From the IMG/VR virus record IMGVR_UViG_2548877009_000014: a stretch of 22,726 nt of DNA; one strand, written 5' to 3'. The position numbers and the translations under genes are program-made. This DNA is from a virus. Its lineage: Duplodnaviria; Heunggongvirae; Uroviricota; Caudoviricetes. Within the stretch, counting starts at the first letter, position 1, and each line of letters opens with the position of its first letter. Shown here piece by piece: positions 1 through 20,989 of this stretch. The notes under the pieces are model-generated. The model made no database searches, was not told the DNA's origin, and worked only from the letters and a program-made list of their open reading frames with translations.

Positions 1-1158
1 ATGCTCACCGTTAAGCAGATTGAAGCAGCAAAGCCGAAAGAAAAACCATACCGCCTTCTCGATGGTAATGGTCTGTACCTTTATGTGCCTGTATCCGGGA
101 AAAAGGTATGGCAGCTTCGCTACAAGATTGGCGGTAAGGAGAAAATCCTGACCGTCGGAAAATATCCGCTTATGACTTTGCAGGAGGCAAGGGGTAAAGC
201 ATGGACTGCGAGGAAAGATATCTCGGTTGGCATCGATCCGGTAAAGGCGAAAAAGGCTTCGTCTAACAACAATTCCTTTAGTGCGATTTACAAGGAATGG
301 TACGATCACAAGAAGCAAGTATGGTCAGTAGGGTATGCGACTGAACTTGCAAAAATGTTTGATGACGACATTTTACCCATCATCGGCAGCCTTGAAATTC
401 AGGATATTGAGCCGATGCAACTGCTGGAAGTAATCCGCAGATTTGAAGATCGCGGTGCAATGGAGCGAGCCAACAAAGCCCGCAGAAGATGCGGCGAGGT
501 TTTCCGTTACGCTATTGTCACCGGAAGGGCTAAATATAACCCGGCACCTGACCTTGCAGACGCCATGAAAGGATACCGCAAGAAGAACTTCCCGTTTTTA
601 CCTGCAGACCAGATCCCGGCATTCAACAAAGCACTTGCAACATTTTCAGGAAGTATCGTATCGCTCATTGCGACAAAAGTTTTACGCTACACAGCCCTAA
701 GAACGAAAGAGCTTCGTTCCATGCTATGGAAGAACGTCGATTTTGAAAACAGGATTATCACCATCGACGCCAGTGTGATGAAGGGTCGCAAAATTCATGT
801 GGTTCCTATGTCAGACCAGGTAGTTGAACTTCTCACTACGCTAAGCTCTATCACCAAACCAGTATCAGAGTTTGTTTTTGCCGGGCGCAACGATAAGAAA
901 AAGCCAATCTGCGAGAACGCGGTGCTACTTGTGATCAAACAAATCGGCTATGAGGGTCTGGAAAGCGGTCACGGATTCAGGCATGAATTCAGCACGATTA
1001 TGAACGAGCACGAATGGCCTGCAGACGCCATTGAAATGCAACTGGCACATGCCAACGGCGGATCTGTGCGCGGGATTTACAACCATGCTCAGTATCTCGA
1101 TAAGCGCAGAGAAATGATGCAATGGTGGGCGGATTGGATCGATGAAAAGGTGGTGTGA
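1..1158 (+). CDS. int: Tyrosine integrase, P4/CP4-57 type; probably complete, but the start coincides with the window edge
   Basis: 385-aa ORF. N-terminus MLTVKQIEAAKPKEKPYRLLDGNGLYLYV matches the conserved N-terminal arm-binding motif of P4-family integrases; C-terminal region (HGFRHEFSTIMNE ... VRGIYNHAQY) is consistent with a tyrosine-recombinase catalytic domain. TGA at 1156-1158. Confidence 0.9.
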   Translation: MLTVKQIEAAKPKEKPYRLLDGNGLYLYVPVSGKKVWQLRYKIGGKEKILTVGKYPLMTLQEARGKAWTARKDISVGIDPVKAKKASSNNNSFSAIYKEWYDHKKQVWSVGYATELAKMFDDDILPIIGSLEIQDIEPMQLLEVIRRFEDRGAMERANKARRRCGEVFRYAIVTGRAKYNPAPDLADAMKGYRKKNFPFLPADQIPAFNKALATFSGSIVSLIATKVLRYTALRTKELRSMLWKNVDFENRIITIDASVMKGRKIHVVPMSDQVVELLTTLSSITKPVSEFVFAGRNDKKKPICENAVLLVIKQIGYEGLESGHGFRHEFSTIMNEHEWPADAIEMQLAHANGGSVRGIYNHAQYLDKRREMMQWWADWIDEKVV

Positions 1159-1220
1159 TCCACCTATATCGCCGTACAATTATCCAACTCACATAATATG
1201 GCGAGAGTAAAGCCTTTAGG

Positions 1221-1251
1221 TTGGTTGTTTTTTTGGGTTTATTCATATAAT
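1221..1251 (+). promoter_or_regulatory. Candidate sigma70 promoter for the cargo gene (TTGTTT-like -35, TATAAT at 1246-1251)
   Basis: Perfect TATAAT hexamer at 1246-1251 with a TTG-containing hexamer upstream, in AT-rich DNA about 100 bp before the 1352 ATG. AT-rich DNA produces such matches by chance. Confidence 0.2.
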
Positions 1252-1351
1252 ATTCTATATGTACGACAATTAAATTTATCTAATATTTAATTGCAATTTA
1301 AAAAATAACAAACTCACATTATACACTATAAAACAACATAAGGATTATGAC

Positions 1352-1939
1352 ATGTTGGTAGATAAGATATTGCACAAAACTGGATTATTTGACTTTCTGG
1401 ACAAAATTTTAATAACCCGTCCTTTCGCTATTGTATCCAATAACTGCTGGGGCTATAGACTATATAAAAATATAGGACTTGAATATAATACTCCCTTTAT
1501 CGGCCTGTACATCACAGCATCTGATTTTGTTGAAATGTGTATTAATTTGGAGCATTTTTTATCAAGAGACATTGTTGAAAGCGATTTCATTAATACAGAG
1601 CATAATTTCCCCGTTGCATTTGTGGATGGAGTAAAAATATACTTTATGCATTATAACTCAAGGGCAGAAGCCATGGATAAATGGAATAGAAGAATAAAAA
1701 GACTTCAATCTTTTATATCATCACATGGCCTTGATAGAGTTGTTTTTAAAATGTGTGATAGAGATGGAAGTTACATGGATGTAATGAAATTTAATGAGTT
1801 AAAAATAAAAAGAACGATATCTTTCACCTCGAAAGAAAACAAAGGACTCGTTGAGAGCAATGGTAATATTTACCCGGGAGATGTATTGTTCAACTTCAGA
1901 CACAGATATTATCTCAAGTATATCAAAACATTTAGATAA
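1352..1939 (+). CDS. Hypothetical cytoplasmic protein on an AT-rich moron; tentatively DUF1919-like (SNNCWG motif), a family associated with polysaccharide biosynthesis loci
   Basis: 195-aa ORF with AGGA ribosome-binding site about 7 nt upstream of the ATG. Markedly AT-rich versus flanking phage genes. No transmembrane segment evident. Motifs IVSNNCWGYRLY, NTPFIGLY and HYNSRAEAMDKWNRR recall DUF1919 from memory. Confidence 0.75.
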   Translation: MLVDKILHKTGLFDFLDKILITRPFAIVSNNCWGYRLYKNIGLEYNTPFIGLYITASDFVEMCINLEHFLSRDIVESDFINTEHNFPVAFVDGVKIYFMHYNSRAEAMDKWNRRIKRLQSFISSHGLDRVVFKMCDRDGSYMDVMKFNELKIKRTISFTSKENKGLVESNGNIYPGDVLFNFRHRYYLKYIKTFR

Positions 1940-1988
1940 CCACTCGACAAGAATATCTAAAGGAAATTATCAGTAGTATTAAAGATTT

Positions 1989-2027
1989 AGTGTCATTCAG
2001 GTAAAAGACTTAAAAAAGAATGACACT
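1989..2027. repeat. Perfect 10-bp inverted repeat (AGTGTCATTC ... GAATGACACT) with 19-nt spacer, 50 bp downstream of the cargo gene
   Basis: Arms at 1989-1998 and 2018-2027 read directly from the sequence. No U-tract after it on the + strand, so not a canonical intrinsic terminator; could be a weak terminator or a protein-binding site. Confidence 0.3.
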
Positions 2028-2340
2028 TGTCTCAATCCTTTAGTTTCGATAAAGCAATCTGGTCCAACCTAACTCTCACGAGTAAAGATAGTATCTCGAC
2101 ACTATCGAGTCAGGTGTCTGGAAATTCAGAAAGATGACCAAAGCAAAATATGCCTTCCAGAATGTGAAGGCAGTCTATTGAAGCTACTTACTGATGAATA
2201 TGCAAGAAAGATAGCCAATGGCACTTCAAAGCTGAAATTTAACATTGTCGTAATTAGCCATTTACTTTGAAGAATGACTGAATAATGTGATGAATCTGCA
2301 GAATTTTTAACGTGGCATAACATTCTGAATGCCTTCGATA

Positions 2341-2508
2341 TCAACTGGCTGCCACCTCCGGTGGAGGCGTAAATTCGCCGCTATTGTATATATAGCCACG
2401 CTGAGTGTCAGGAGGGCATTCAACCCAGATTAACGAGTCATGATATCTACCCGTTGGGTCTATATCAGTTAACTCCATTACCACGTTGTTTTCAATTCGT
2501 GCCCACAT
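2341..2508 (-). pseudogene. 55-aa ORF translationally coupled to the tail fibre gene; probable truncated remnant of a tail-fibre assembly chaperone (P2 gpG / Mu U-like)
   Basis: ATG at 2508 lies 11 nt after the tail fibre stop with a GAGGT ribosome-binding site. Translation MWARIENNVVMELTDIDPTG...WVECPPD resembles an internal segment of gpG-type chaperones (from memory). The ORF stops exactly where GC-rich phage DNA gives way to AT-rich DNA. Confidence 0.35.
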
Positions 2509-2518
2509 AATTTATACC

Positions 2519-3442
2519 TCACCAATAAATAATTACAATCCCGCTATGACCAGCACCAGTAACTCCGCCAGTCTTTTTCGTTGCCAACCCAGCGCCACCA
2601 CCGCCAGGACCTTTTGCATTACTGCCAACATTCCCCGCCGAATCTAAAACCTGTCCATGCCCGCCAGGACCACCGCCACTACCTCCGACAGCCGAATCAG
2701 TGCCTGCTATCATTGATGCACCAGGAGAGCCTGGGCCAAGAGACGTATTTATCTGCCCCCCCACACCTTCTCCCCCCACTCCTCCGGATATCTGACCTCC
2801 ACCATATCCGCCTGTTGCCGAGAGATATGTGCCAAAACTACTGGTGCCACCAGGATTTCCGTTTCTTGCTGACGTATTTTGACCTTTTCCACCACTGCCT
2901 ACAGTGATTGTGACGGTGTCAATACCTGTTAAGTCAATGACGGACTCGCTCACACCACCGCCGCCACCGCCGCCGCCACCGGCAGCGTTCGTTGAGCTTA
3001 TCGACGGGTAACCGCCAGACCCGCCACCGCCGATAACCTTCACCCTGACGCGTCGGCCCTTTTTCACTATGTCAGGAACATTCCAGGTGCTGACGCCTGC
3101 ATTATCAAATACAGCGCAATTTTGAGCGCCAAATGTGGCTTCTCCCAAACCAAGGTTTTCGAGAGCCGTTTGCACAGTGCCATCCGATTTGATATCGCCA
3201 AACGGATTCTTGCGGCTTAACAGCAGCGCGCGAAGTGCGGTAAGCAACTGATCGTGCCGCCCCTTCTCCAGGCTGGCACCGGATGCCTCCACCACGCTGC
3301 AAAGCTCCTCCTGCAACATATCAAAGTAGTCATCATCCAGATCGGTGGCAGGTGTGCCAGTCTGGGGGTTACCACGGGTAAAACCGTTCTTACCCGCGCC
3401 GAACTTATCCTTCTGCGCGGTTTTCGTGTCTATACGATGCAT
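2519..3442 (-). CDS. Tail fibre protein with conserved N-terminal baseplate-attachment domain and glycine-rich C-terminal region; unusually short
   Basis: 307-aa ORF. N-terminus [47 protein letters not shown] is a conserved enterobacterial prophage tail-fibre N-domain; the remainder is Gly-rich low complexity. GGAG ribosome-binding site 8 nt upstream. Position is last in the Mu-like baseplate operon. Confidence 0.8.
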
Positions 3443-3445
3443 GGA

Positions 3446-4030
3446 TTACTCCGGATATTTAAAAATTACGTAGGTATGCGACGGGCAGAGTTTGTTAAGC
3501 ACACATTCGACAACGGTGTCGCCCCAGATACGCAGCGCGGAATCACAGGGATCGCCACATGTCATCCAGGTGGTGTTTGTGGCGGCTGGCATGTTGACCT
3601 GCCAGTAATACCGCCATTCCGGCGCATTCACCGCGTCAGTACAGGCCGATGAGCAGGTGAACGTGCTTTTGTCGTATCGCGTGATGGTAGCGTCTGGTCT
3701 GCCCAGGGCAGCAAGCTGTGCAAGATAAAAATTCTCGTTGATGCCGCCCGCCAGGTTAACCTTCGCATCCAGCCGTTGCTGACGCTGGCGAAGGGTCTGT
3801 GTCCCTGCGGGAATACATTCATCCGGCAGACCGCACAGACGCTCCCAGCGGTTTATCAGTTCAGTGGTGGTGCGCGGATCCAGCTCCCGCATCAGGGCAT
3901 CCGCACGCTGATGAACGCGGGTTAATGACGGTGCCGCACCGGCAATCGCCGGATCGCTGGCTGACCACGCCGGACCGGGGGGCAACAGTGCCGACAACAG
4001 ACGGATGTAATCATCGTTTGTCACGTCCAT
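3446..4030 (-). CDS. Tail/baseplate protein, Mu gp48-like (DUF2313 / YmfQ-like)
   Basis: 194-aa ORF; position between the baseplate J-like gene and the tail fibre; start overlaps the upstream gene; sequence recalls the YmfQ/gp48 family. Confidence 0.8.
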
Positions 4031-5079
4031 GAAATCGTCCCCAGTACCGCCAGTTCATTTTTTGCAATGGAGATATTGTCTGCCGGTGCAAGCAACTGAT
4101 GGCTGTATTCCCCGTTCGCACCGGAAATCGCCTCACTGATACGCGATACCTTCAGTTCTCCCTGCGGATAACCATCACGCAGCAGGAACGAACGCAACTC
4201 CGCGGTGATGGCAGCCCGTATTTCCGGTGTGTCCGGCGTCACGCGGATATGAAAATCCACCGTATGTGCCACCGGCCTGAACACATACAAATCAGAGCCT
4301 GCCACCGGGGCCAGTGGCCCGATATGTTGTCTTGCCGCCGTTTCCGTTGATTCTTCCGGAATGGGATTAATCAGGTCACTGCTGGCAATCATCACACCGA
4401 CAGTTCCCGTTCCCATCCAGTGACGGTATGTCCATGCGCGGGTAATGCCGGGCACTTCTTTAGCCCATACGACATAGTCCCCGTCAGCCCCGCCCTGCGG
4501 CGTCCAGTAATACCGCTCAATGACGCGGGCGCGCCACGTTTCCAGCTCTTCAGTATCAAATCCGCCTGTCAGGGTGTCAGCCACACCGGAAGACGGCAGA
4601 CCATTCACCGGCGTGACCAGGATTAATGCCGTACCGTCGTCAGCGTTACCGACCGCGCCTGCATTTGAGCAGGCGATCGGCACGCGCAGGACACCACCGG
4701 AGCTGGTTGCATCGGCAGTTGCAGTATACTGAACCAGGTCATCGCGCTGAATAACACTCCCGGCGGTCACCTTCAGGCCATCGCTGACACCTTCCCAGCG
4801 CATATACCCGCTGGCAGCCGTGGCCCCCTTGCGCGGACACCGTTTCATCGCAGCATGTCGCGCCAGCCAGGACTCATCGCACAGGTCAGGCAGCATGTTC
4901 ATTGCCAGATAATCGATGTACCCGTAAACCGTATGCAGCGCCGCCGCATACACCTTTGCCCGCACGTCTTCATCCATGCGCCGGAGCGTGTCGCTGACGT
5001 CCAGCCTGGCGAATAAATCGTTACGGAGCATACTGATATTTTCAGCCAGCGTCGGGCGCTGAAATTCACTGTCCGCCAT
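4021..5079 (-). CDS. Baseplate J-like protein (Mu gp47 homologue)
   Basis: 352-aa ORF overlapping its neighbours; typical size and position for baseplate J-family wedge proteins in Mu-like tails. Confidence 0.85.
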
Positions 5080-7118: not shown

Positions 7119-8443
7119 TGCACTGGCACCTTCAGAGGGATCACCGGCACAAAGCCGGGATGCGTAATGGCATTACGCCGGATAATGTCCGCGTCACGCG
7201 CCGCGTTATCAAACCAGGTCGCCGCCAGCACCAGTGCGGGTAAAACCTCATCCGGCGTGCGCTGAATGATCCGTGCAGACTGTTCAAGGCGCGTGTTGAT
7301 ATCCGCATTCAGATCTGCTTTCACCCGGCGCAGCGCCAGAAACAGCGCATCACTGGTTGTGCGGGACAACTCCTTATCAATTGCCGTATTCAGTGTGTAG
7401 CGAATGTCAGTCAGTTCTTCCCACGTCGGCAGGTCAACCGTGCTTTTCACCGCCGGTGCATTGTTCAGTGCCGGATGCGTGACGGAAGGCCAGCCAGTGC
7501 TCTGCGCGGGTGTTGTTGCCTGCCCCACTGCGGCATTCTGCATCACCGCGGAAGTTGTTGGCGCAGGCAATCGGGTGACGGCATACGCCGCTTCGCTGAT
7601 TGCGGTCGTACGAAGGATGCTGGCAACCACGTTACGCTGCTGCGTCGCCGTAGCGGTGGTTTTACTGTCCGTTTTCCAGACGCCGCGCGGTTGCAGATCG
7701 CTGCCGAGGCTGACACCGGAAAGCGTTTTGATCATGGTGACCAGGTCGCTGGCGTTACCATAAAGGCGTTTCCCGGTACGCCACATTTTCTGCACCTGTT
7801 CAACGAAATTTTTGCCTGACGATGGCGGCGGCAGAAGTACCGAGATATCCCCCTGCAACAGCCTGGCGGCATCCGATACGGCAGAATCCACCACTTTCAT
7901 CGCATCAGAAACATACCCAAGCATTGTGCCGGCATTACCGACGACGTCGTTCTGCACAAAATCTGCCACGCCATCGATACTGAAACCACTGAAACTTTCA
8001 CTGATGCAGTCATCCAGTGCAGAACAGGATGACATCAGCGTCTGCGCCGTCGCCGCACCTGATGTGGGGTAAGAGAGTTCTCCCGCTTCGACAAACTTCA
8101 GGTCAAAGCGGACAATACGCCCTTCACTTTTCGATGTGCTGACCCGAACTTCCCCGTCAACACAGACTTTCAGCTCACCATATGTCGGGTGGACAAGCGT
8201 GCCGGGACCGGGTTTATTCAGCGCTTCAATCAGGCGATCGCGCTGGTCAAAGCAGTCATCTCCCACCACATAAGCTGTGATGGACGGGCGGAAAGTGACT
8301 TTTCCCAGATCTTCGGTATAGGGTTTGTCGCGGTTCGGATATTCGTGTGTTTCCACACGACGGCCGGTTCCCGCACTTTCTTCTTCAACCTTAAACGGCA
8401 CACCTCGAAATGACGCATCCTGAAGCCTGTCTTTCCACGTCAT
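7115..8443 (-). CDS. DNA circulation protein (Mu gp43 / N-like)
   Basis: The ORF track begins at 8485, but the start is more likely the ATG at 8443 (MTWKDRLQDASFRGVPFKVEEE...) with GGAG 5 nt upstream. The 8444-8485 extension overlaps a terminator hairpin. N-terminus is typical of the DNA-circulation family. Confidence 0.85.
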   Translation of the reverse strand: MTWKDRLQDASFRGVPFKVEEESAGTGRRVETHEYPNRDKPYTEDLGKVTFRPSITAYVVGDDCFDQRDRLIEALNKPGPGTLVHPTYGELKVCVDGEVRVSTSKSEGRIVRFDLKFVEAGELSYPTSGAATAQTLMSSCSALDDCISESFSGFSIDGVADFVQNDVVGNAGTMLGYVSDAMKVVDSAVSDAARLLQGDISVLLPPPSSGKNFVEQVQKMWRTGKRLYGNASDLVTMIKTLSGVSLGSDLQPRGVWKTDSKTTATATQQRNVVASILRTTAISEAAYAVTRLPAPTTSAVMQNAAVGQATTPAQSTGWPSVTHPALNNAPAVKSTVDLPTWEELTDIRYTLNTAIDKELSRTTSDALFLALRRVKADLNADINTRLEQSARIIQRTPDEVLPALVLAATWFDNAARDADIIRRNAITHPGFVPVIPLKVPVQ

Positions 8444-8458
8444 ATAAACTCCGGATAT

Positions 8459-8480
8459 AAAAAAGCCCACCGAAGTGGGA
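8459..8480 (-). terminator. Intrinsic terminator or attenuator between tape measure and DNA circulation genes (5-bp GC stem, UUCG tetraloop, U6 tract on the - strand)
   Basis: - strand reads CCCAC-TTCG-GTGGG-C-TTTTTT immediately after the tape-measure stop; read directly from the sequence. Confidence 0.5.
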
Positions 8481-8503
8481 CTCATTAACAGATTAATTTT
8501 TCA

Positions 8504-10339
8504 TTACCTGCCAAAGCGCGTATAGCCAACATCATGGCTGACATCAAAACCGCTGGTTCGCGTTTCCATAACCCGCATACCCGGAGGCGAATTCACAAAA
8601 GAGACCTTGATCTCACCATCAACTTTTGGCGCAGAAGCTTTGTTAATCATGAAGGGATTCGGGCCTGTGGCATCGGAGGCGTTGTTTGACTGAGCCAGAT
8701 CTACCGCCGGATAAGGAGTGTATCCCCGTGCCGGTATTCCCGTCCCATAAGCATCATAAGCACCCGCGCCCCACTGCGCCGAGTTAATGGTATCGACCGT
8801 GTCACCGGAACTGTCGGTAAACCATTCAATAATCGGCTTCAGCTTGTCCCACATATCCTGAAACCACTTAACAACCGGCCCCCAGTTATTGATCACCATC
8901 CCCAGCGGCGACCAGGCAAAAACTTTCTTAAGGAGTTCCCAGCCAGCCTCAAAATAAGGACCAATGGTTTCCCAGAGTTTCTTAAAATAAGGTCCGACAA
9001 CATCCCAGTTAGTGATAATTAATCCCGCAGCCAGGGCTATCGCCGTCGCAATCATGCCAATCGGCGTCATCGACATGATCCTGCTGACAATACTGATGGC
9101 ACTGCCCACGCCCATCAATCCCAGCTTCAGAATCGCAAGACCGGCAGCAAGCCCGACGACGCCGCGAATAACCCGGGGATTTTCATCCGCAAACTTTGTG
9201 AATTTTTCCCCTAACTCCCCCAGCCATTGCGTGATATTTTTAGCGTCACCAGAAAATGCGCCGCCAATAGCTGCAAGACCGTTAGTTGCGGTCCCCGTCA
9301 TTGCCTCCCACAGGTTGGACAGCGTACCAAGCTGAGCCTGAACACGTTTATTCAGGCTGGCCTGTTTATTCATCTTCTGCTGGATCTGATCGTAGCCATC
9401 CTTTCCTTTATCGATCAGGGCATTGACCACCTGAAGGGTTTCGGCATCATCACCAAATATTGCCTTAAGTACGCCTGTTCGCTTAACGTCGGTCAGTTTT
9501 CGCAACTTTGCCAGTTGCCTGAACATGTTATCAAGACCGCCAAAACTCCCTTTGCCATCAGTAAAATCGAGTTGTATCCCGAGTTTCTGGCGGGCCATGA
9601 CTTTATTGACGTCCCTAATTTTCTTAACGCTTAATCCGGACTGGATAACTTTTCGCAGGGCATTACCTGCCGACTCCCCGTTCATCCCCATCTGATCCAT
9701 CATGACACTGATGGGGGCAAGACTCTGTGCAGCCTGAAGACCGTCCTTATTCACCATCTTCAGAACAGAGCTGGTTTTAGTGAAGAATGACAGCATGTTG
9801 GTGTCGTCAACGCCCAGATAAAACGCCTTCTGAATTGTGTCGAACAGCCCCATCATGTCTTCTGAGGCCGTTCCGGTAGCATCCTGCATCTTTGCTGCAA
9901 ACTCGGCAGCCGCTTCCGGTGTTTTTTTCAGTTGTACCGCAAGATAAGCTGTCGCTTTACCCACACCACCCAGAATGTTTTCTGCCGGGATCCCCTGACG
10001 CACCAGCATCTGCATCATGTTCTGGAAATCAGCCGTTGTACCGGGTAGCTGGTTACCCAGGCCAATAGCCAGTTTATTGATGTCCTGAAAGCTCTTTCCA
10101 ACCTCGCCGTTCGCATCCATCATGGCGACTTTCAGCCCGGTAGCGGCGTTTTCCTGATCGGCATAAGATTTCAGGGAAAGCGTCAGCCCCGCTGCCAATC
10201 CGCCACCAAGCGCCAGCCCACCCTGTGACGCTTCTTCCGCCTGGCGTTTAAATCCCCGGATTTTCTTTTGCATTTTCGACAGCGCGGGAGAAAGCCTGTC
10301 GACACCGGTGATCAACGCCTTAAGCTCAAATTCAGCCAT
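8504..10339 (-). CDS. Tail tape measure protein
   Basis: 611-aa ORF with alanine/glycine-rich and hydrophobic central segments; positioned after the tail chaperone pair as in all long-tailed phages. Confidence 0.9.
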   Translation of the reverse strand: MAEFELKALITGVDRLSPALSKMQKKIRGFKRQAEEASQGGLALGGGLAAGLTLSLKSYADQENAATGLKVAMMDANGEVGKSFQDINKLAIGLGNQLPGTTADFQNMMQMLVRQGIPAENILGGVGKATAYLAVQLKKTPEAAAEFAAKMQDATGTASEDMMGLFDTIQKAFYLGVDDTNMLSFFTKTSSVLKMVNKDGLQAAQSLAPISVMMDQMGMNGESAGNALRKVIQSGLSVKKIRDVNKVMARQKLGIQLDFTDGKGSFGGLDNMFRQLAKLRKLTDVKRTGVLKAIFGDDAETLQVVNALIDKGKDGYDQIQQKMNKQASLNKRVQAQLGTLSNLWEAMTGTATNGLAAIGGAFSGDAKNITQWLGELGEKFTKFADENPRVIRGVVGLAAGLAILKLGLMGVGSAISIVSRIMSMTPIGMIATAIALAAGLIITNWDVVGPYFKKLWETIGPYFEAGWELLKKVFAWSPLGMVINNWGPVVKWFQDMWDKLKPIIEWFTDSSGDTVDTINSAQWGAGAYDAYGTGIPARGYTPYPAVDLAQSNNASDATGPNPFMINKASAPKVDGEIKVSFVNSPPGMRVMETRTSGFDVSHDVGYTRFGR

Positions 10340-10750
10340 GTGTGCGTTTCTCCTGCTCTATCCTGTTTGCCTGACTGACCAGCAAGGGAATTTCACTGAT
10401 CGGCATATTCAGCAATTCGAAGGGATTAATGCGCCAGTAGCTGGCGCAGTCAAAGAAGCGATCAGTGAGGTATTCAGCCGTCAGGCCTGGAGGAAAAAAC
10501 CAGCCACAAGCCACGCCGCTGCATTCAGGTCTGCCGGAGACATCTGGTCGACAGAGCTTTGCGGCACTTTCGCCAGCCGCACAATGTATTTCGACACCAC
10601 ATGCGCCAGAAGTCTGACGGACTCATCCTGATTCATCTGGTAGGGATACCCCAGCTCGCGGACATCCTTCCCGGTGGGTTCATCAAACTCCAGTACGGAG
10701 AGTGTCTCACCATGAGCGATAATCGGTTTCTTTAACTCAAGCTCTTTCAT
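10332..10750 (-). CDS. Tail assembly chaperone frameshift fusion product (GT / E+E' analogue) made by a -1 programmed ribosomal frameshift
   Basis: The -1 frame ORF (10332..10514) overlaps the 3' end of the chaperone ORF. Zero-frame codons GGT TTT TTC (G F F) contain the heptamer T TTT TTC; the -1 frame continues ...FFPPGLTAEYL... and stops at 10332, overlapping the tape-measure start. Confidence 0.6.
10481..10750 (-). CDS. Tail assembly chaperone (lambda G / P2 E / Mu gp41 analogue), zero-frame product
   Basis: 89-aa ORF between tube and tape measure genes; TAATG overlap with the tube gene; ends 12 nt after a T_TTT_TTC slippery heptamer. Confidence 0.8.
   Translation of the reverse strand: MKELELKKPIIAHGETLSVLEFDEPTGKDVRELGYPYQMNQDESVRLLAHVVSKYIVRLAKVPQSSVDQMSPADLNAAAWLVAGFFLQA
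10493..10499 (-). other. Slippery heptanucleotide T_TTT_TTC for -1 programmed frameshifting
   Basis: Read directly from the sequence; fits the X_XXY_YYZ rule in the zero frame of the chaperone gene. Confidence 0.6.
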
Positions 10751-11106
10751 TACTGGTAATCCCCTTCTTCACCGTGGAACTCAAGATCAACCGTGCCTTC
10801 TTCGGCATTATGGTTCGCTTCGCCGTGCAGCCAGGCAGACGACAGTACATAGACCTGACCGTTCGCCAGCTCGGCAGTGATGGTCATCTCATCAGACGAG
10901 GTGATTTTGCTCACCGGAAAATTCTTCGGCACCTTGAAGGTTCCTTTGACATAAGGCGCGCGGTGAGTTTCCTTGCGGTCCACTGAACCATCCAGACCGA
11001 TGATGTCATCGTTAACCGTCCTGTTCATGGGCACCTCAATGCCGCCGGTCAGCGATAGCTGCTGACCGTCAATTTTGAAATAACAGGTTCCCCCGATACG
11101 GGCCAT
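10750..11106 (-). CDS. Tail tube protein (Mu gp40 / M-like)
   Basis: 118-aa ORF directly after the sheath gene with TAATG overlap; size and position characteristic of contractile-tail tube proteins. Confidence 0.85.
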   Translation of the reverse strand: MARIGGTCYFKIDGQQLSLTGGIEVPMNRTVNDDIIGLDGSVDRKETHRAPYVKGTFKVPKNFPVSKITSSDEMTITAELANGQVYVLSSAWLHGEANHNAEEGTVDLEFHGEEGDYQ

Positions 11107-12602
11107 TATGCAGACTCCTCTGAATACTGAAGACGGAACTGGTTAACCACGGCAAAGACACGCAACTGGTTAACATAGTCAGGCGGGAACAGCGTGTTCA
11201 GGCGGTTCGGATCGCTGGCATCACGCTCCACAACCAGGTACTGCTTGAACAGTTCGTAGTTTTCCACGATCCCCGCACGCTCGAGCTGACGGTAGGTTGC
11301 CAGCAGTTCCCCTTTGATCACCGCCGGGGTGACAATCGCCTGACCGGGACCAAAGCGGGTACCGTCACTGGCAAGCTTGTGACGCCCGTACTTACTGGTA
11401 ATGACGGATTTCAGTTTGCGCAGTACATACGCGCTGGTATGCAGCGTCTCGCTGTCGAGGTAGCTGTTATCCGCAACCCCGTAAGCGTTTTTCCTGTACG
11501 TGGTGACATCACGCTGAATGCGCAGCACCCCGCTTTCGACATACGCCGTTGCCACGCCATGAGACAGCAGGGTCTGCTGCTCGGTCATCGTGAACCGTTT
11601 CCCCTTCGGCGCAGGCAGCATACCCACCAGCTCACCGGTCTGCGTGGGACGTGCCGGATCGTTGCGGATAAACACCGCTGCGCGGGCGGTACGGCTTGCC
11701 GCCAGCTCGTCGGCAGGCGTCTGGGCCTCTTTTTCGTACCCCGCCAGGGTGATGTGCTGCTGGTTAAACTGGTCACCTGCGTTCACCAGTTCTGACAGTG
11801 TGCCGGTCTTTGCCGTATACACATGACCATACAGCTGACGCGCATAGCTCCAGCGACCGCTGGTATCGTTCATCTCGGTCACCAGCGTGTTAACGGAGGC
11901 CGTGTCGTTGAACGGCAGACCGATATAATCAAACGGCTCATCCGCCATTGCAGCCACCGCGCCGGTGAGAACCGGAGCGCCCGTTCCGGCGGTCCCCGTC
12001 GCCACGGCAATCTGTACGCCCGCTGGCAGCACTTCGCCCCCACCGAAGCCGTAGTAATTGAGGCTGACAGGAATTTCATTCCCGCAAAGCCCCTTATGAC
12101 GCGCGGTCAGCGTGACAACACCAGCCGAAGATGAAGCTGTAAACGGCAGAGTCGGAACGGCATTGATGGCATCTTTGATACTGCTGGCAATCGTCGTGAC
12201 GTTATCGCCGTTGGTCACCGGAGCCTGCACGCGGGTACGTCCCACATAGACATTCACCGTGCCGCTTTCGGTTGCTTCCCCGGTCACCGTCAGCGTAACC
12301 GTTGCCGCCGCGCCTGTGGCTTCCGGAACGGCAATCACATACAGCTCACCAAACGGGTCGGTCTGGCGATAAGCCTCGACCATACGCGCCAGCTGACTTC
12401 CCGTACCACAAATCTGGCGTGCATAGTCTGCCGACGGCATCAGTACCAGACTGTTGGCAACAATCTCTGCACCGTTATTGGCATGACCAATCAGCAGCGA
12501 TGCTCCGCTGTCCTGTGCAGTATTCGCCGCCTGATTATCCATTTCCGCATAAAACAGCGGAACCAGCGTATTCGACGGAATGGTGTTAAAGCTTATCGTC
12601 AT
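11106..12602 (-). CDS. Tail sheath protein (Mu gp39 / L-like)
   Basis: 498-aa ORF; order sheath-tube-chaperone-tape measure is diagnostic of a contractile tail. Confidence 0.9.
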   Translation of the reverse strand: MTISFNTIPSNTLVPLFYAEMDNQAANTAQDSGASLLIGHANNGAEIVANSLVLMPSADYARQICGTGSQLARMVEAYRQTDPFGELYVIAVPEATGAAATVTLTVTGEATESGTVNVYVGRTRVQAPVTNGDNVTTIASSIKDAINAVPTLPFTASSSAGVVTLTARHKGLCGNEIPVSLNYYGFGGGEVLPAGVQIAVATGTAGTGAPVLTGAVAAMADEPFDYIGLPFNDTASVNTLVTEMNDTSGRWSYARQLYGHVYTAKTGTLSELVNAGDQFNQQHITLAGYEKEAQTPADELAASRTARAAVFIRNDPARPTQTGELVGMLPAPKGKRFTMTEQQTLLSHGVATAYVESGVLRIQRDVTTYRKNAYGVADNSYLDSETLHTSAYVLRKLKSVITSKYGRHKLASDGTRFGPGQAIVTPAVIKGELLATYRQLERAGIVENYELFKQYLVVERDASDPNRLNTLFPPDYVNQLRVFAVVNQFRLQYSEESA

Positions 12603-12756
12603 CGGTGTTCACCTTTTTATTCACGCGCCGGATATCACCCGCTACTTCACGGCGCAGCCAGTAGTTGTTCTCGTCAACATTTCGCCCTTCGGCGGGCAAA
12701 AGGTCGCCGCGGGCAGGGTCAGGAACTGACCGCCCTTTAACAGGTTTGACAAACAT
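12586..12756 (-). CDS. Small conserved protein upstream of the sheath gene (56 aa; DUF2635-like, Mu gp38 position)
   Basis: Absent from the ORF track because it is under 60 aa. ATG at 12756 with TGAGGA ribosome-binding site 5 nt upstream; its 3' end overlaps the sheath start by 17 nt. Translation MFVKPVKGRSVPDPARGDLLPAEGRNVDENNYWLRREVAGDIRRVNKKVNTDDDKL. Confidence 0.55.
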   Translation of the reverse strand: MFVKPVKGRSVPDPARGDLLPAEGRNVDENNYWLRREVAGDIRRVNKKVNTDDDKL

Positions 12757-12764
12757 GAGGATCC

Positions 12765-13325
12765 TCAGGAAGGAAGGGTTATTTCGGTGTGATGTTCGAT
12801 ATCGCCGTCAGGCCCGTTACCGGGCTCGAGATAATCAACATCAATCGCCAGCGTTTGCAGTTCATCCAGACTGTTCAGATCATCCTGCTGGCGGGTATCG
12901 TCTTCAGTCAGCTCGCTGATGACCGAAAAATCGAACTGATAAATCAGCTCATGACGATTCAGATCCAGCAGCGTGCCGCCGTCATAGGTAATCGGGTTAC
13001 CGCACGCTTCCGGGTTCCAGCCCAGCAGGGCCTTAAAGAGCATCTGCCGGACATCGTCCACCACATCATACGAGGCAAACTGACCGCGCTCATCACGCCC
13101 GTTACTCAGTATGACAACCACGGAGAAGCCCTCTTTCAGCTCCTGCCAGTAGTCGGTCTGGCTTTTGTTTTCTCCCGGAGAGTCATCACCCGGTACCACA
13201 TACGCCGCCGGGAGTCTCAGCTTTCCGACCTCCGGCAGATTTTTGAACTGTGCCGCGCCTGCCACCCGGTTTTCAAAATACGGGCAGCGGGCACGCAGCG
13301 CAGCAATAACAGGCGTCAGTTTCAT
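12765..13325 (-). CDS. Virion / tail-completion-like protein (Mu gp37-like)
   Basis: 186-aa ORF in the head-tail junction block with ATGA overlap to the upstream gene. Confidence 0.65.
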   Translation of the reverse strand: MKLTPVIAALRARCPYFENRVAGAAQFKNLPEVGKLRLPAAYVVPGDDSPGENKSQTDYWQELKEGFSVVVILSNGRDERGQFASYDVVDDVRQMLFKALLGWNPEACGNPITYDGGTLLDLNRHELIYQFDFSVISELTEDDTRQQDDLNSLDELQTLAIDVDYLEPGNGPDGDIEHHTEITLPS

Positions 13326-13828
13326 CTGTGTCGTCGCTCCGGCTTCAGTGATTTACGCAATTCCCGCGCCAGAAAATAGCGTGTCCAGCTGCGGTTCTTT
13401 TCAAGAGTTTCCACCATGAAGTTATTACGTGGAGCCAGTCGCCAGCCGCTGCCACCGGATGCACCACGATGATGACTACGACGACGTTTTGCTCCTCCCC
13501 GGACACCAAAAAACAGAAATGCCGGATAGAAGTCACCAGAGATCATCCGGTTCCCCTTCCCGTTGCGCTGGTTAGGGGCAATGCGTGTCATAAAACCGGC
13601 TCGCTTTTTACTGGCTCTCGGCACCATATAACCAATCGAACGAGCCAGGCGTCCGGTCTGATAACCGGGGTTTTCACCTGGTGCCGACCGCGCACGGCGC
13701 ATCACCAGCCGACGGGCATCACGCATATGACGCTGCCCAATCGTGACAAACGCCCGCCGGACACGGGCGCGGTTAAAGCGCATCTCGGCGGGCTGCTGAA
13801 CATCAACGTGAAAAAAGGGAGTCGCCAT
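13322..13828 (-). CDS. Arginine-rich head-tail joining protein (HK97 gp10-family-like)
   Basis: 168-aa strongly basic ORF; position after the head closure gene. Confidence 0.65.
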   Translation of the reverse strand: MATPFFHVDVQQPAEMRFNRARVRRAFVTIGQRHMRDARRLVMRRARSAPGENPGYQTGRLARSIGYMVPRASKKRAGFMTRIAPNQRNGKGNRMISGDFYPAFLFFGVRGGAKRRRSHHRGASGGSGWRLAPRNNFMVETLEKNRSWTRYFLARELRKSLKPERRHR

Positions 13829-14213
13829 TGCTGCCTCCGTGACTCTGCCTACATTCGCCCAGCTCCGTACACTCCAGCAGCAGAAAGCGCCGCGCCCCGT
13901 TCAGATCACGCTGACGTTTCACCCGGTACACACTGTCATCACAGACCACCTCATAATCAGCAGTGATCCCCCGGCGGTAACGAATGGTGATGTAATGGGT
14001 GATGGCGTCCCCGGTCTGCGCGGTTTCCTGCCAGGTGGTGGCACTGGTCTGGATAACCTTCGCCCATGTCCGGAACGTAACCGGGTATTGAGGCTCCACG
14101 CCAAAGTTATCCGCGGGCATATCCACCCGCTGGCGGATCAGGACGCGTTTATTCAGTTCACCGGGGTCCGGCAGAATGTAGGTTGCGCTGGTCTGCGCCT
14201 GACGAATTTTCAT
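13803..14213 (-). CDS. Head closure / head-tail adaptor protein
   Basis: 136-aa ORF following the gp6-like connector gene with a 4-nt overlap. Confidence 0.7.
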   Translation of the reverse strand: MKIRQAQTSATYILPDPGELNKRVLIRQRVDMPADNFGVEPQYPVTFRTWAKVIQTSATTWQETAQTGDAITHYITIRYRRGITADYEVVCDDSVYRVKRQRDLNGARRFLLLECTELGECRQSHGGSNGDSLFSR

Positions 14214-14533
14214 TGCGGAAAGTACCTGTACGGGCCGACAAGCCAGCCAAAACTCTGCGGCATGTCGAGTTTCTCCACTTCCGTAACCGACGAGCGGTTT
14301 TCGTAAAAATGGCTGATAAGCATCAGCATCCCCAGACGAATATCATCCGGCAGGTGCAGCCCGTCCGGATCGCTGTCCGGAATGGTTTCATCCGGTGCAT
14401 AGAGCTTCCGGTTCAGATACGTTTCCGTCCGCTTTTGTGCCGCACAGGCCAGCAGTTGCAGATGGCGGTCATCAGCATCGAAATCCTCATCCAGCCGGAG
14501 TTGGGCTTTAATCTCTTCCATTGTCAGAAGCAT
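14210..14533 (-). CDS. Head-tail connector protein (gp6-like)
   Basis: 107-aa acidic ORF (MLLTMEEIKAQLRLDEDFDADDRHLQLL...) typical of gp6-family connectors. Confidence 0.7.
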   Translation of the reverse strand: MLLTMEEIKAQLRLDEDFDADDRHLQLLACAAQKRTETYLNRKLYAPDETIPDSDPDGLHLPDDIRLGMLMLISHFYENRSSVTEVEKLDMPQSFGWLVGPYRYFPQ

Positions 14534-14535
14534 AC

Positions 14536-14736
14536 TCAGCCCTCTTTACTGGTCGTGGCTTTTTTCTCTTTTGCCGCTTTACTGCTTTTTGCACTGATTC
14601 CGCGCTCTGCTAACCCGGCCTGAAGTGCAATCTCCTGCACCCGGGCAGGAAGTGCCCCGTCGTCATACTCACCGGCCCGAATGACCTCAACACGCATACC
14701 GTCCGGTGACCATTTCAGATCTTGTTTCAGGATCAT
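14536..14736 (-). CDS. Hypothetical small protein with lysine-rich C-terminus between capsid and connector genes
   Basis: 66-aa ORF that exactly fills the gap between the capsid hairpin and the connector gene; weak GGTGA ribosome-binding site. Confidence 0.5.
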   Translation of the reverse strand: MILKQDLKWSPDGMRVEVIRAGEYDDGALPARVQEIALQAGLAERGISAKSSKAAKEKKATTSKEG

Positions 14737-14760
14737 GATTCTTCACCCGTCAGAACAGGG

Positions 14761-14780
14761 GGCGCGGTTCCGCGCCCTTG
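14761..14780 (-). other. GC-rich hairpin immediately after the major capsid gene (possible partial terminator or mRNA stabiliser)
   Basis: GGGCGC-GGTTCC-GCGCCC read directly from the sequence, 5 nt after the capsid stop; no strong U-tract. Confidence 0.4.
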
Positions 14781-14785
14781 AGTGA

Positions 14786-15991
14786 TTACGCCGCTGCAAT
14801 CTTCAGCAGTTTGATGGCCTGCGAATCGACCAGCATCCCGCCGGTGCGCTTGGTGGTATAAAAACCGACAAACGGTTTATTGGTGTACGGGTCACGCAGA
14901 ATGCGGGTGCCGATACGGTCAACGATGGTGTAACCCCGTTTGAAGTTACCAAATGCAATGGCTTTCGCATCAGCGGCGATATCCGGCATCTGTTCGTTTT
15001 CAGCGATACCGTAACCCGCCAGAGAGGACGGCTGCCCCAGTTCCAGCCCCGGACGCCACAGATAGTTACCCTCGCTGTCTTTAAGCAGACGGATGGCAAA
15101 CAGGCTGTTGTTGTTCATCATGAACTTCGCGCCAGTGCGGTGTGCCTTACGCAGCGTGTAAATCAGTTTGATAATGGCGTCTGCGGTCACCGCGGTCGCT
15201 TCGCCGGATACAATATGCTGAAGTTTGCCGAACGCCCGGACCTTGTCGGTTTCATCAGTGGATTCATACGCCAGGAACCCTTTCGGCTTCTTGGTGCCAT
15301 CGCCTGAGGTAAAGGCAATTTCTTCCTGTTCGGCAAATTCGGTTGCCAGCTCGCTGTTGATCCAGGCCTCCACGTTGAAGAAGGCATCGTCCAGCATTTT
15401 CTGGGTAGCCTGCGGGTTGCCGTAAATTTCCCCCATGAGAGGTTCAATCAGCTCCAGTCTGGAGGTGGCAGTCTGGGATCGCGTATCCGTTTCCCCCACC
15501 CATCCGGAAGCCGTACCGCCCAGATTCGCCAGTTTTTTGTAGTCGGAACCGCCAACGGTGATCACCGTGGCTTCCTGACGCATCACCACTTCATCTTTCA
15601 GCAGGTTAAGAATGTTGCGATCCAGTTCTTCCGGCACGGCGTAGCCACCGTCTTCATCGGTACCCACCTGCAATGCCTTACGCTCCAGATCGCGCAGACC
15701 GTCTTCACGGCCTTTACGCAGGAAGCCCACAAACGCCTCTTTATGCTCGGTGGCCAGTTTATTTTGCGCTCCACCAGCCGGACGTTTCAGCTCAAGCAGC
15801 TCTTTTTCAAGGTCGCTTTTGAGATTTTCCAGCTCGCTGAGTTTCCCGTTCAGGGTTTCCACCTGCCCGGCAAGCTTGCCTTTTTCCTGCTCAATCGCAT
15901 CCACGCGCTTGTCGTTCTTTGCTTTGAAGTCGTCAAACTTCTGCTGCAGCTCCTGCGCGACCTGTTCGACATCTTTAATATCAACCGCCAT
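14786..15991 (-). CDS. Major capsid protein, HK97 family (with N-terminal coiled-coil delta/scaffold domain)
   Basis: 401-aa ORF; N-terminal 70 aa heptad-rich (VEQVAQELQQKFDDFKAKNDKRVDAIEQEKGKLAGQVETLNGKLSELENLKSDLEKELLELK), followed by a domain typical of HK97-fold capsid proteins; AGGAG ribosome-binding site 8 nt upstream. Confidence 0.9.
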   Translation of the reverse strand: MAVDIKDVEQVAQELQQKFDDFKAKNDKRVDAIEQEKGKLAGQVETLNGKLSELENLKSDLEKELLELKRPAGGAQNKLATEHKEAFVGFLRKGREDGLRDLERKALQVGTDEDGGYAVPEELDRNILNLLKDEVVMRQEATVITVGGSDYKKLANLGGTASGWVGETDTRSQTATSRLELIEPLMGEIYGNPQATQKMLDDAFFNVEAWINSELATEFAEQEEIAFTSGDGTKKPKGFLAYESTDETDKVRAFGKLQHIVSGEATAVTADAIIKLIYTLRKAHRTGAKFMMNNNSLFAIRLLKDSEGNYLWRPGLELGQPSSLAGYGIAENEQMPDIAADAKAIAFGNFKRGYTIVDRIGTRILRDPYTNKPFVGFYTTKRTGGMLVDSQAIKLLKIAAA

Positions 15992-16005
15992 CGTATTTCT
16001 CCTGA

Positions 16006-16692
16006 TTAGAAGTTCAGATTTTTCAGTGCATTCAGTGCAGAGCCCACATCCTCAGCGTCGCGCAGGGACAGTGCGCTATAGCCCCCGGCCATGAATGCTT
16101 TGGCCTGGGTGCGGGAGAGTCCGACATCACGCAGGACTCTTTCGATTTTTTTCTGTTCGGGGATTTCCCCGCGGGCCAGTGCGTTCTTGACGTCGCTGAT
16201 CCGCGCCTCGTCGTTAGACGGGAACGTCACCAGGCTGACTTCCCAGAGGTCGATTTCTTTCAGCAGAAAGGCTTCTTTGCTCCGGTCGTATTCCCAGTCT
16301 TTCAGGACGTACCCAATAGAAAGGCCGGTTAACGAACCGGCCTTCATGTGTGCATGTGCGCGTTTTGCGAGGGGATCATCATCAATAAGCAACCGTCCCC
16401 TGACGTAAAGCCCGACATCGTCTTCCTTCATTTCGGTGTAAACACCGATGGGTTCATCCATGCGGTGCTGCCAGAGCAGCGCAGGTAACGCTTTTCTGTC
16501 ACTCCACGCCCGCAGGGAAGCAGCAAATGCCCCGGACATCACCACATCATCGTGGCTGTCCTTTACACCAAAGACGGAGCCATACCCTTCAAACTCACCG
16601 GAGTCACTGACAGATTTCAGACTCAGCGGTACATCAAGACGTTGTTTCGTCTGCATTGGCGTTATCCTTCTGCTTACCGGCTTTACTGCCAT
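16006..16692 (-). CDS. Prohead protease, HK97 family
   Basis: 228-aa ORF; motif FEGYGSVFGVKDSHDDVVMSGAF is typical of HK97 prohead proteases. The real start may be the internal Met at 16656 (MQTKQ...). Confidence 0.85.
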   Translation of the reverse strand: MAVKPVSRRITPMQTKQRLDVPLSLKSVSDSGEFEGYGSVFGVKDSHDDVVMSGAFAASLRAWSDRKALPALLWQHRMDEPIGVYTEMKEDDVGLYVRGRLLIDDDPLAKRAHAHMKAGSLTGLSIGYVLKDWEYDRSKEAFLLKEIDLWEVSLVTFPSNDEARISDVKNALARGEIPEQKKIERVLRDVGLSRTQAKAFMAGGYSALSLRDAEDVGSALNALKNLNF

Positions 16693-17875: not shown

Positions 17876-18057
17876 TATTTACCTCCGCCGACAGACGGCT
17901 GTGTACGGTCGAGATATCGCGCCACCAGCCACGACCAGAACAGGCACAGCGCCCCGGCAACAACAAACCCCGCCGGGGGATAAATCAGCCAGGCACCATA
18001 CGCCAGCAAAAGCGCACCCAGCACGCCCACCAGAGGCGCGAGAATCAGCATGATCAT
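17875..18057 (-). CDS. Small hydrophobic (two predicted transmembrane helices) protein between terminase large subunit and portal
   Basis: 60-aa [52 protein letters not shown]... with GAGGT ribosome-binding site 6 nt upstream; its stop overlaps the portal GTG start (TAGTG). Confidence 0.5.
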
Positions 18058-18068
18058 AATTACCTCAG

Positions 18069-19802: not shown

Positions 19803-20293
19803 GATTCGATGATTTTCAGAAACGGGTTAGTGGCTTTCTTCTGCCCCGCCAGGCCAATCAGACGCTGGCGGCTGCTGGGGTCGAGTCCGAGCATTGCCCC
19901 CGTGCTGCTCATCTCGGACTCCTGTTCTTTCTTGGCGGTCAGCTCCGGATTTTTGACCATGCCGCCCATTGCACCGGTGATGGTGTTGCCCTGTCTGGCA
20001 ATATTTTTCACGGCACGTCGCCAGAACTCATAGGCCACGCACCACCGCTCAAGCACTGCGAGGTCAGTCACGCACAGCAGGCCCTGACCGCAGAGTTCTT
20101 TGGTTGTCAGTTGCCACATGATCGTGGCGAGAGGAAGCTCTTCTTCAGCGAACCACTCCGGTGGCTCAACACCTTTGATGGGCGTAAAAACAGGTTCATC
20201 TTTGTTCAGGGCTCGCTTGCCGGGGTTTCCGGCCAGCGCCTTGCGCGCCGTTGGCTTAGGGCGACGCCCGGAACGCCCCGCCGTTCCAGCCAT
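19799..20293 (-). CDS. Terminase small subunit, P27 family
   Basis: N-terminus [30 protein letters not shown] matches the P27-family small terminase signature. The track start at 20302 is a GTG; the ATG at 20293 has AGGAG 8 nt upstream. Confidence 0.85.
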
Positions 20294-20343
20294 ATGCGGC
20301 ACTCCTGGTTAAATTTCATTTTTCGCGGGTATAAAAAAACGAT

Positions 20344-20392
20344 GGGGCGGGCAGTCCGGAAGACGTCAGGTCACAGGGATTTGACCCGCCCC
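20344..20392 (-). promoter_or_regulatory. GC-rich inverted repeat (GGGGCGGG ... CCCGCCCC) with downstream U7 on the - strand; candidate cos / packaging site or intrinsic terminator
   Basis: Perfect 8-bp arms at 20344-20351 and 20385-20392, 33-nt spacer; - strand continues ATCG-TTTTTTT. Lies in the 116-bp gap between the HNH and small terminase genes, where cos sits in HK97-like phages. The G-rich arm resembles the lambda cohesive end GGGCGGCGACCT. Confidence 0.35.
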
Positions 20393-20418
20393 TCCCCTCT
20401 GGCAGTGGGAACTGGTTC

Positions 20419-20908: not shown

Positions 20909-20989
20909 AATTTCCCGTTTGATTTAATGGACACTATAGAGGGACAGAATGCCTTCCTCACTCGAATCACATCAATTAAGGAGGTTCAA

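Follow-up and report, generated by a model that had tools for sequence, protein, structure and literature searches.

A short glycine-rich tail fibre and its putative 55-residue chaperone in an Escherichia coli prophage with a Mu-like tail

The tail fibre of cyanophage Pam3, gp24, has been described as a 'simplified' tail fibre (PDB 7YPX and 7YFW; PMC9608196), and its solved chains are 280–289 amino acids (aa) long. In the Pam3 protein gp25, residues 1–55 form a beta-sandwich 'tentacle' that grips the fibre at the side of its TNF-like domain and its glycine-rich domain, and residues 64–162 form a helical bundle that trimerises the chaperone (PMC9608196). Mass spectrometry of virions did not detect gp25, some gp24 trimer was found to form without gp25, and gp38 of Salmonella phage S16 was cited as a structural relative of gp24 (PMC9608196). 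TFP_Y, a Pam3-like fibre of a Klebsiella phage, binds lipopolysaccharide (LPS) and its host-range mutations lie in the glycine-rich domain (PMC12671077). Here we analysed a 22,726-nucleotide stretch of viral DNA (IMG/VR record IMGVR_UViG_2548877009_000014, hereafter the window), in which a 307-aa glycine-rich tail fibre gene is followed by a small open reading frame (ORF) of 55 aa.

We concluded that this locus is very probably a complete two-gene receptor-recognition cassette of a prophage of the SfV/e14/CPS-53 type with a Mu-like tail, consisting of a simplified fibre and a putative mini-chaperone that corresponds to a client-binding domain, and mobile via a Din-invertase site. This reading is based on what was computed here: that the domains are complete, which homologies and predicted folds they have, that the cassette recurs, where the breakpoint lies, and that the small ORF is under purifying selection. 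The features of the locus are given below; labels such as L015 are our own designations for the loci compared.

2519..3442, minus strand: tail fibre gene, 307 aa, an uninterrupted ORF in the ORF list, directly after wedge genes resembling Mu gp47/gp48
3147..3442, minus strand: N-terminal anchor of the fibre, about aa 1–99, of the SfV/e14-type backbone, 96–98% nucleotide identity to relatives
2519..3146, minus strand: putative distal receptor-binding module, about aa 100–307, predicted TNF-like and glycine-rich (Pfam, AlphaFold, Foldseek)
3140..3165, minus-strand sequence CTCTCGAAAACC TT GGTTTGGGAGAA: Din-invertase-type crossover site, 26 bp, encoding LENLGLGE at the anchor/tip junction
2509..2520, minus strand: junction of fibre and putative mini-chaperone, with a GAGG ribosome-binding site overlapping the fibre stop (from sequence)
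2341..2508, minus strand: predicted mini tail-fibre assembly protein of 55 aa that stands alone and is homologous to the N-terminal beta-sandwich of Tfa-type chaperones (from profile, fold and family)
2038..2340, minus strand: non-coding tail of the cassette, GC 0.37, with a terminator-like hairpin at 2151–2172 (minus), about 80% identity to the end of L015–L017

A first-pass annotation of the window had described the 307-aa fibre at 2519–3442 and the 55-aa ORF at 2341–2508, both on the minus strand, and both were present. It had further read the fibre as a conserved N-terminal attachment domain followed by low-complexity Gly-rich sequence with no obvious distal receptor-binding domain. The conservation of the N-terminal part was confirmed: several PHROG tail-fibre families matched residues 1–110, and the fibre profile aligned with the N-terminal part of the Mu fibre protein S over residues 40–126 (E 1.7e-5). 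The anchor DNA was 96–98% identical to that of sister prophages and of phages SfI, SfII, SfIV and SfV, and this identity stopped at about 3139–3141. Helices were predicted at residues 37–53, 63–75 and 90–96 of the anchor with a low predicted local distance difference test score (pLDDT) of 35–60, and the anchor presumably docks the fibre to the baseplate.

The description of the remainder of the fibre as low-complexity sequence did not hold. Residues 115–307, of which 33% are Gly, covered essentially the whole Pfam profile Gly_rich_2 (PF21722, positions 3–225 of 226, E 2.4e-10, 41.3 bits with a cut-off of 24.3). The AlphaFold model of the fibre, made with 33 homologues, had a pLDDT mostly above 90 over residues 110–307 and was weak over the N-terminal 100. 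When this model was searched with Foldseek the matches were, best first, the Pam3 fibre (7ypx_A, E 6.6e-9, probability 1.00), gp33 of mycobacteriophage Bxb1 (9d93_Q) and the TG domains of ALK/LTK. A literature search on PF21722/Gly_rich_2 found no papers.

The length of the fibre was compared with that of its relatives. The family phrog_863 covered the full length, residues 1–307, and the matching PHROG tail-fibre families aligned either with the full fibre or with the C-terminal part alone, a part that also terminates much longer fibres. In alignments the tip was found behind six or more distinct N-terminal parts and in every case closed the protein, and the tips of the relatives all finish at the same ...IIYW terminus. 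The identical fibre protein (P0015) is present in public E. coli assemblies, together with many proteins of 300–316 aa that carry the same anchor and a Gly_rich_2 tip. Two such fibres, P0114 and P0080, belong to the prophage family of the window, and the P0114 locus has the same yfdC/intS chromosomal site. As judged from these alignments the fibre would be complete, 300–316 aa being the usual length of such fibres on the backbone of the window. Its predicted TNF-like/glycine-rich fold would place it, with nothing unusual about it, in the established class of Pam3 gp24-like simplified fibres, and the fallback offered in the first-pass annotation, a distinct short-fibre type, was the correct one. 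In L001 and L018 the NCBI Prokaryotic Genome Annotation Pipeline (PGAP) wrongly splits the 307-aa ORF into an 'stfP pseudogene, missing C-terminus' and a 'glycine-rich domain-containing protein' of 174–182 aa, and some records call Gly_rich_2 fibres 'carbohydrate kinase'.

The small ORF follows the fibre gene after a gap of 10 nt and has a GAGG Shine-Dalgarno sequence with an 8-nt spacer to the ATG. PGAP does not call it as a gene. The junction, including start codon and ribosome-binding site, is kept in L010, L015 and the Yersinia phage MLG42, and the position of the stop is also conserved. The family of the 55-aa protein comprised 14 clusters of 50–84 aa, mostly 50–55, all of which begin with MWARIEN and share 16 invariant positions. 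These residues hold across the versions from E. coli, Yersinia and Pseudomonas, with a strongly conserved polar stretch ELTD.DP.GR.H, and in phages of these three hosts the length is kept at 52–59 aa. The counterpart in MLG42 also numbers exactly 55 codons and is 80% identical to the small ORF of the window, and the Pseudomonas phage Amjad_SA has a 59-aa homologue. The pairwise ratio of non-synonymous to synonymous substitution rates (dN/dS) was 0.23–0.39 in most pairs, and compared with the Amjad_SA copy synonymous sites were saturated at a dN of about 0.35–0.39. The small ORF is under purifying selection.

An exhaustive profile search with the small-protein family through 1.8 billion representative proteins returned 709 relatives. 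Nearly all of the best 150 of these matched via their first ~50 residues; most were 100–215 aa long and about 15% were stand-alone proteins of less than 80 aa. In 68 longer relatives the domains found behind the N-terminal module were DUF4376 (20), Phage_tail_APC, a tail assembly chaperone (9), and Caudo_TAP (2). A profile of the family together with its longer relatives matched one solved structure only, the Pam3 chaperone gp25 (7ypx_a, E 5.6e-7); the alignment spanned residues 6–118 and its well-aligned part was the N-domain. The AlphaFold model of the small protein had a pLDDT of 83 and consisted of five strands and a short helix, and its top Foldseek match was again 7ypx_a, with a template modelling (TM) score of 0.69 and a root-mean-square deviation of 3.1 Å over 56 columns. 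In hhalign the small protein was placed on residues 3–58 of the 131–134-aa Caudo_TAP chaperones that stand beside other Gly-rich tips, with an E of about 2e-4. Searches against Pfam and NCBIfam gave no match for the small protein, including none to Caudo_TAP, DUF4376 or Phage_tail_APC, and among the PHROGs just phrog_8716 was matched (E 0.015). No C-terminal helical trimerisation domain was found: the protein ends at residue 55, and when three Tfa (Caudo_TAP) proteins were compared with the window by tblastn none gave a match better than E 0.42.

By family comparison and predicted fold, the small ORF would be a full-length member of its family and correspond to the client-binding domain of a Tfa-type chaperone, ending at the linker. 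The first-pass annotation had called it an internal piece of a gpG/U-type chaperone. The relation to fibre chaperones was supported by the profile match to 7ypx_a; the internal piece was not, since it is the N-terminal domain that the ORF matches, at the full length usual in its family. This putative chaperone, reduced to one domain, had gone unannotated and would be a variant of a known chaperone type. Judging from the sequences of the 131–134-aa sister chaperones, the C-terminal chaperone module appears to be interchangeable or dispensable.

The tip and the small ORF were found together, with the same stop, outside the prophage family of the window. In the P2-like E. coli prophages L010–L014 the nucleotide identity was 95% over window 2337–3164, in the Fels-2-like Yersinia phage MLG42 it was 81%, and in the E217/Pam3-like E. 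coli prophage type L015–L017 it was 80%; the tip alone gave the same 95% and 81% for the P2-like and MLG42 cassettes. The pair was also present in the other SfV-like prophages L019, L021 and L022. Four phage backbones carry this combination of tip and putative mini-chaperone. Every tip of the window subtype that we examined has the small ORF after it (seven contexts: the window, L010–L014, L015–L017, L019, L021, L022 and MLG42). A related pair occurs in Amjad_SA, a plaque-forming lytic Pseudomonas myophage (PMC12968170). This phage has structural genes of the Pam3/E217 type and a Gly_rich_2 fibre in addition to the 59-aa homologue of the small protein, and no Tfa-type Pfam domain was found in any of the 40 mid-size Amjad_SA proteins scanned.

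In the P2-like prophages two inverted crossover sites enclose a segment of 1.57 kb (4353–5918 in L010 and L014) beside a Resolvase/HTH_7 invertase gene. Between L010 and L014 this segment is flipped precisely at the crossover sites, and both orientations are present in public assemblies. In one orientation the constant fibre part is fused to the Gly-rich tip, followed by a 52-aa ORF; in the other it is fused to a Gp53-like tip, followed by a 137-aa Caudo_TAP chaperone. Window 2337–3164 is 95% identical to one half of this invertible segment. As the 52-aa ORF takes the helper slot of the Gly-rich tip in the flipping segment, the small ORF holds the chaperone position in a working phase-variation system.

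The window has a corresponding site inside the fibre gene. The core of the crossover site, AAACCNNGGTTT, has a single match in the window, where 0.01 would be expected by chance, and in its inner half the site agrees exactly with those that enclose the invertible segment in L010 and L014. We assign the site at 3140–3165 to the hix/gix/cix/pix class by its resemblance to the consensus sequences of that class; the inversion itself is seen in the data. The homology that the window shares with sister prophages with other tips breaks off at about 3141, and that shared with the cassette sets in at 3164. The core matched only this once in the window, so that no second inverted site was found, and no invertase or resolvase gene is annotated in the host prophage of strain Ec40743; with one site and no invertase the arrangement in the window is fixed.

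An alignment to related prophages had been suggested in the first-pass annotation as a way to locate the breakpoint, which was expected at the AT-rich junction behind the small ORF. We carried it out, and by these sequence comparisons the real recombination joint would be the crossover site inside the fibre gene, not the AT-rich boundary. Base composition agreed with this. The third-position GC is 0.63 in the anchor, 0.41 in the tip and 0.45 in the small ORF, which puts the break inside the fibre gene; it is hidden in the raw GC because of the GGN glycine codons. Raw GC falls from about 0.55 to 0.37 and then to about 0.30 just past the stop of the small ORF. The earlier observation that the ORF stops where GC drops was therefore right, and its interpretation as a recombination scar was not: homology to L015–L017 runs about 300 bp beyond the stop, to 2038, with indels that disrupt reading frames, and thus the lower-GC DNA right after the small ORF belongs to the cassette. 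The hairpin at 2151–2172 in this part was found by a consensus scan. A 72-aa ORF at 2126–2344 on the minus strand was considered as a gene and rejected, since none of the families matched it and indels disrupt its frame in the homologous stretch of L015.

Compared with Pam3, the locus shares the setting of a myophage with a minimal Mu-like baseplate and a single short fibre in which an anchor, tentatively predicted as helical here, is followed by a TNF-like/glycine-rich tip (289 aa in Pam3, 307 aa here). In both, the chaperone gene or its counterpart is directly downstream, and gp25 residues 1–55 match the 55-aa protein in profile and in predicted fold. The two differ in that gp25 has 162 aa with a C-terminal four-helix trimerising cap, whereas the protein of the window ends at the linker; the fibre identity is just ~23%, and the anchor of the window is of the Mu S/StfP type. 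The Caudo_TAP proteins Mu Tfa (gpU), P2 gpG and lambda Tfa likewise are encoded downstream of the fibre and are modular, their N-domain being variable and specific to the client. In sister prophages other Gly-rich tips are accompanied by Caudo_TAP proteins of 131–134 aa, and the mini-protein aligns with the first ~55 residues of these; it lacks the conserved C-terminal helical region ending in ...WP..P. In the Din invertible segments (Mu G/Gin, P1 C/Cin, e14 P/Pin and the P2-like Fels-2 type) the crossover site is also at the constant/variable junction and tip and helper move together; the window differs by its single site, with no inverted second copy and no invertase gene. S16 gp38 and the TG domains of ALK/LTK resemble the tip in their lattice of glycine-rich strands with variable distal loops. 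S16 gp38 is a separate adhesin at the end of a long fibre and ALK/LTK are animal receptor kinases, so the similarity is at the level of the fold only (12–16% identity). TFP_Y would share the fibre architecture and differs in phage backbone and N-terminal domain.

From these comparisons a mode of action can be proposed. The backbone anchor of about 100 aa would run straight into the TNF-like plus glycine-rich tip, with the cassette joined to the backbone at the Din-invertase crossover site in the fibre gene and ending at its own non-coding tail. The fibre would trimerise through the anchor, and the variable glycine-rich loops would face the surface receptor, possibly LPS. In tips of this class, such as those of Pam3 gp24, S16 gp38 and the LPS-binding Klebsiella phage fibre, extended strands rich in glycine form a packed lattice, and the host surface is bound by the variable loops at the distal end. 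The small gene would be expressed from the late transcript of the fibre, and the 55-aa protein would bind the side of each nascent tip and aid the folding of the glycine-rich lattice without a trimeric cap, lacking the helical domain through which Pam3 gp25 and Mu Tfa trimerise. Binding mode, chaperone activity and receptor of the pair are suggested here by analogy with the described systems. More generally, the MWARIEN family of roughly 50–60 aa may be a minimal stand-alone fibre chaperone, the 'tentacle' domain by itself, lacking the helical domain for trimerisation or capping and carried along with its tip as a cassette of ~0.8 kb via invertase sites; we give this generalisation an even chance.

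The opposite reading, put forward in the first-pass annotation, was that an AT-rich island, on its arrival, removed the distal part of the fibre together with the bulk of a gpG/U-type chaperone and left a stub fibre, a 55-aa pseudogene fragment and a tail that may be defective or altered in host range. It would fit the fall of the raw GC just past the 55-aa stop, the PGAP call of part of the fibre ORF as a pseudogene 'missing C-terminus', and the true lack of the C-terminal chaperone domain in the small protein. We regard this deletion as extremely improbable, given that the Gly_rich_2 domain is complete and that fibres of this size are found both among many relatives and in the Pam3 structure. 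The length and stop position of the small ORF are the same in other phage backbones, the L015 homology runs 300 bp past the stop, tblastn in the window detected no C-terminal chaperone remnant downstream, and the breakpoint is at 3140–3165. In the sequence comparisons no sign of a pseudogene or truncation was seen, with a stop shared across backbones and genera, dN/dS of 0.23–0.39 in most pairs and no remnant downstream.

The small ORF could also be a functionless relic that is carried along by tight linkage, with a tip that folds unaided or via host chaperones. The protein indeed has no domain of the type said to drive gp25 trimerisation in Pam3, automatic annotation leaves the ORF uncalled, some Pam3 gp24 trimer forms without gp25, and one dN/dS value is above 1. 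A relic is nonetheless improbable in view of the sixteen residues invariant across E. coli, Yersinia and Pseudomonas, a dN of only about 0.35–0.39 to Amjad_SA where synonymous sites are saturated, and the conservation of start codon, ribosome-binding site and stop position; among the 150 top-scoring representatives of the family, a diverse set, about 15% have the stand-alone form, and the small ORF is retained in a compact invertible segment of 1.57 kb. If the protein is functional, it could instead stay on the mature fibre for good as an accessory subunit, acting as a clamp on its side or as a co-adhesin and aiding receptor binding, and not be a transient chaperone. The helical bundle that forms the cap must leave the Pam3 tip to expose the distal loops; with no such bundle nothing forces release here, and the very strong conservation of the polar stretch ELTD.DP.GR.H would suit a stable interface. 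Mu Tfa is said to remain on the fibre. On the other side, Pam3 gp25 went undetected in virions by mass spectrometry, and the site at which the small protein would bind by analogy is on the flank of the tip, at a distance from the distal loops. We consider a permanent subunit unlikely, while giving it some weight, and keep the complete cassette with a mini-chaperone as the preferred reading.

Several observations weigh against a complete and functional cassette. For the small ORF, dN/dS between MLG42 and L015 was 1.27, a value derived from just six substitutions. The narrow profile of the 55-aa family alone gave the same top match, 7ypx_a, weakly (E 0.21); the Foldseek E-value to 7ypx_a was 0.044, the query being short; and the hhalign probabilities to the 131–134-aa chaperones were only 44–47%. 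The cassette in MLG42 has no N-terminal anchor and no adjacent invertase gene, and a search for convincing inverted crossover sites in MLG42 found none; the cassette is thus silent there and says nothing on function. In Amjad_SA a 419-aa gene sits between the fibre and the small ORF (L023, 26051–28768). The phage collection contained no isolated phage combining an SfV-type backbone with a Gly-rich fibre, and the megablast matches of SfI, SfII, SfIV and SfV end at the crossover site. When the tip of the window was compared with phages by tblastn only MLG42 and Amjad_SA were matched, and the commoner P0114-type tip had no match in a search in which the low-complexity filter of BLAST could mask matches. 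In the Ec40743 prophage two copies of the insertion sequence (IS) ISEc52 are found in the early/regulatory region beside frameshifted or partial genes (L018, about 14350–20471), and in the prophage of strain ECC-1470 one ISEc52 copy interrupts the tail tube gene (L001, 18785–19960). The host prophages are probably defective for reasons unrelated to the fibre, namely IS elements and damaged genes, and with IS elements in their early region this copy may never reach a virion.

If the proposed role is true, the client-binding domain alone suffices to fold a TNF-like/glycine-rich tip, and the 55-aa protein would be the smallest known fibre-assembly factor. The mini-chaperone would be a natural test of which chaperone domain the folding of a glycine-rich tip needs. 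A damaged-looking locus, annotated in part as a pseudogene by the NCBI pipeline and with its second gene missed, would then be an intact host-recognition module, and short glycine-rich fibres are frequent in E. coli prophages and often mislabelled. The tip and its 55-aa helper would form a compact unit with a defined splice point, LENLGLGE, that could be of use for retargeting phages or pyocins. The fibre class, the modular chaperones and the exchange of cassettes at invertase sites were already established, and current understanding is not overturned.

Several further observations concern the cassette and its relatives. The tblastn match of E 0.42 was considered as a chaperone relic and not relied on: it falls on the other strand, across the 3' end of the small ORF, and is mostly forced by this overlap. 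On the plus strand, window 2331–2372 reads AFDINWLPPPVEA-stop; this resembles the C-terminal end, APDIEWPTPPVVE-stop, of the Caudo_TAP protein that the invertible segments encode convergently, in overlap with the small ORF. This stretch may be a relic of a few codons of the convergent chaperone gene, with a similarity mostly forced by the small-ORF overlap. The SfV-like L021 (3411–4357) contains the same two-tip array without the invertase, and in the SfV-like L019 (3589–3690) only a 33-aa remnant of the convergent chaperone is present. The 419-aa protein of Amjad_SA has a polysaccharide-deacetylase domain and is possibly a tail-associated enzyme.

The prophage adjoins tRNA-Arg and intS in the E. 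coli chromosome. Window 1100–4100 is 100% identical to E. coli strain ECC-1470 and five other complete genomes, and the structural region 8000–22726 is 99.9% identical to six genomes. Homologues of gp44, gp45, gp46, gp47 and gp48 in Pfam identify a Mu-like baseplate, and by nucleotide comparison the backbone family is common to phages SfI, SfII, SfIV and SfV and to the e14/CPS-53 remnants. The genes just before the fibre match Baseplate_J and Phage_Mu_Gp48 in Pfam. On the minus strand the order runs from the baseplate wedge genes through fibre and small ORF to an AT-rich stretch with one opposite-strand DUF1919 gene, and then to the integrase. The two features on this side of the cassette are:

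1168..2037, plus strand: AT-rich cargo ('moron') slot, GC ~0.30, between intS and the fibre operon, with a single DUF1919 gene at 1352–1939
1–1158: intS integrase

The gene at 1352–1939 (plus strand) matched Pfam DUF1919 with E 3.5e-33 and may be a surface-polysaccharide-modifying moron. In sister prophages the slot is filled by an Acyl_transf_3 gene or by gtrA/gtrB-type genes, which are O-antigen-modifying. The DUF1919 filling was found in 8 of 5426 complete E. coli genomes, always with the fibre of the window. A scan of the whole window for structured RNA with Rfam gave nothing. On the plus strand at about 21294–21587, according to the annotation of the identical Ec40743 region, an iss gene ('increased serum survival', encoding a Bor-like lipoprotein) is located beside the lysis genes of the prophage.

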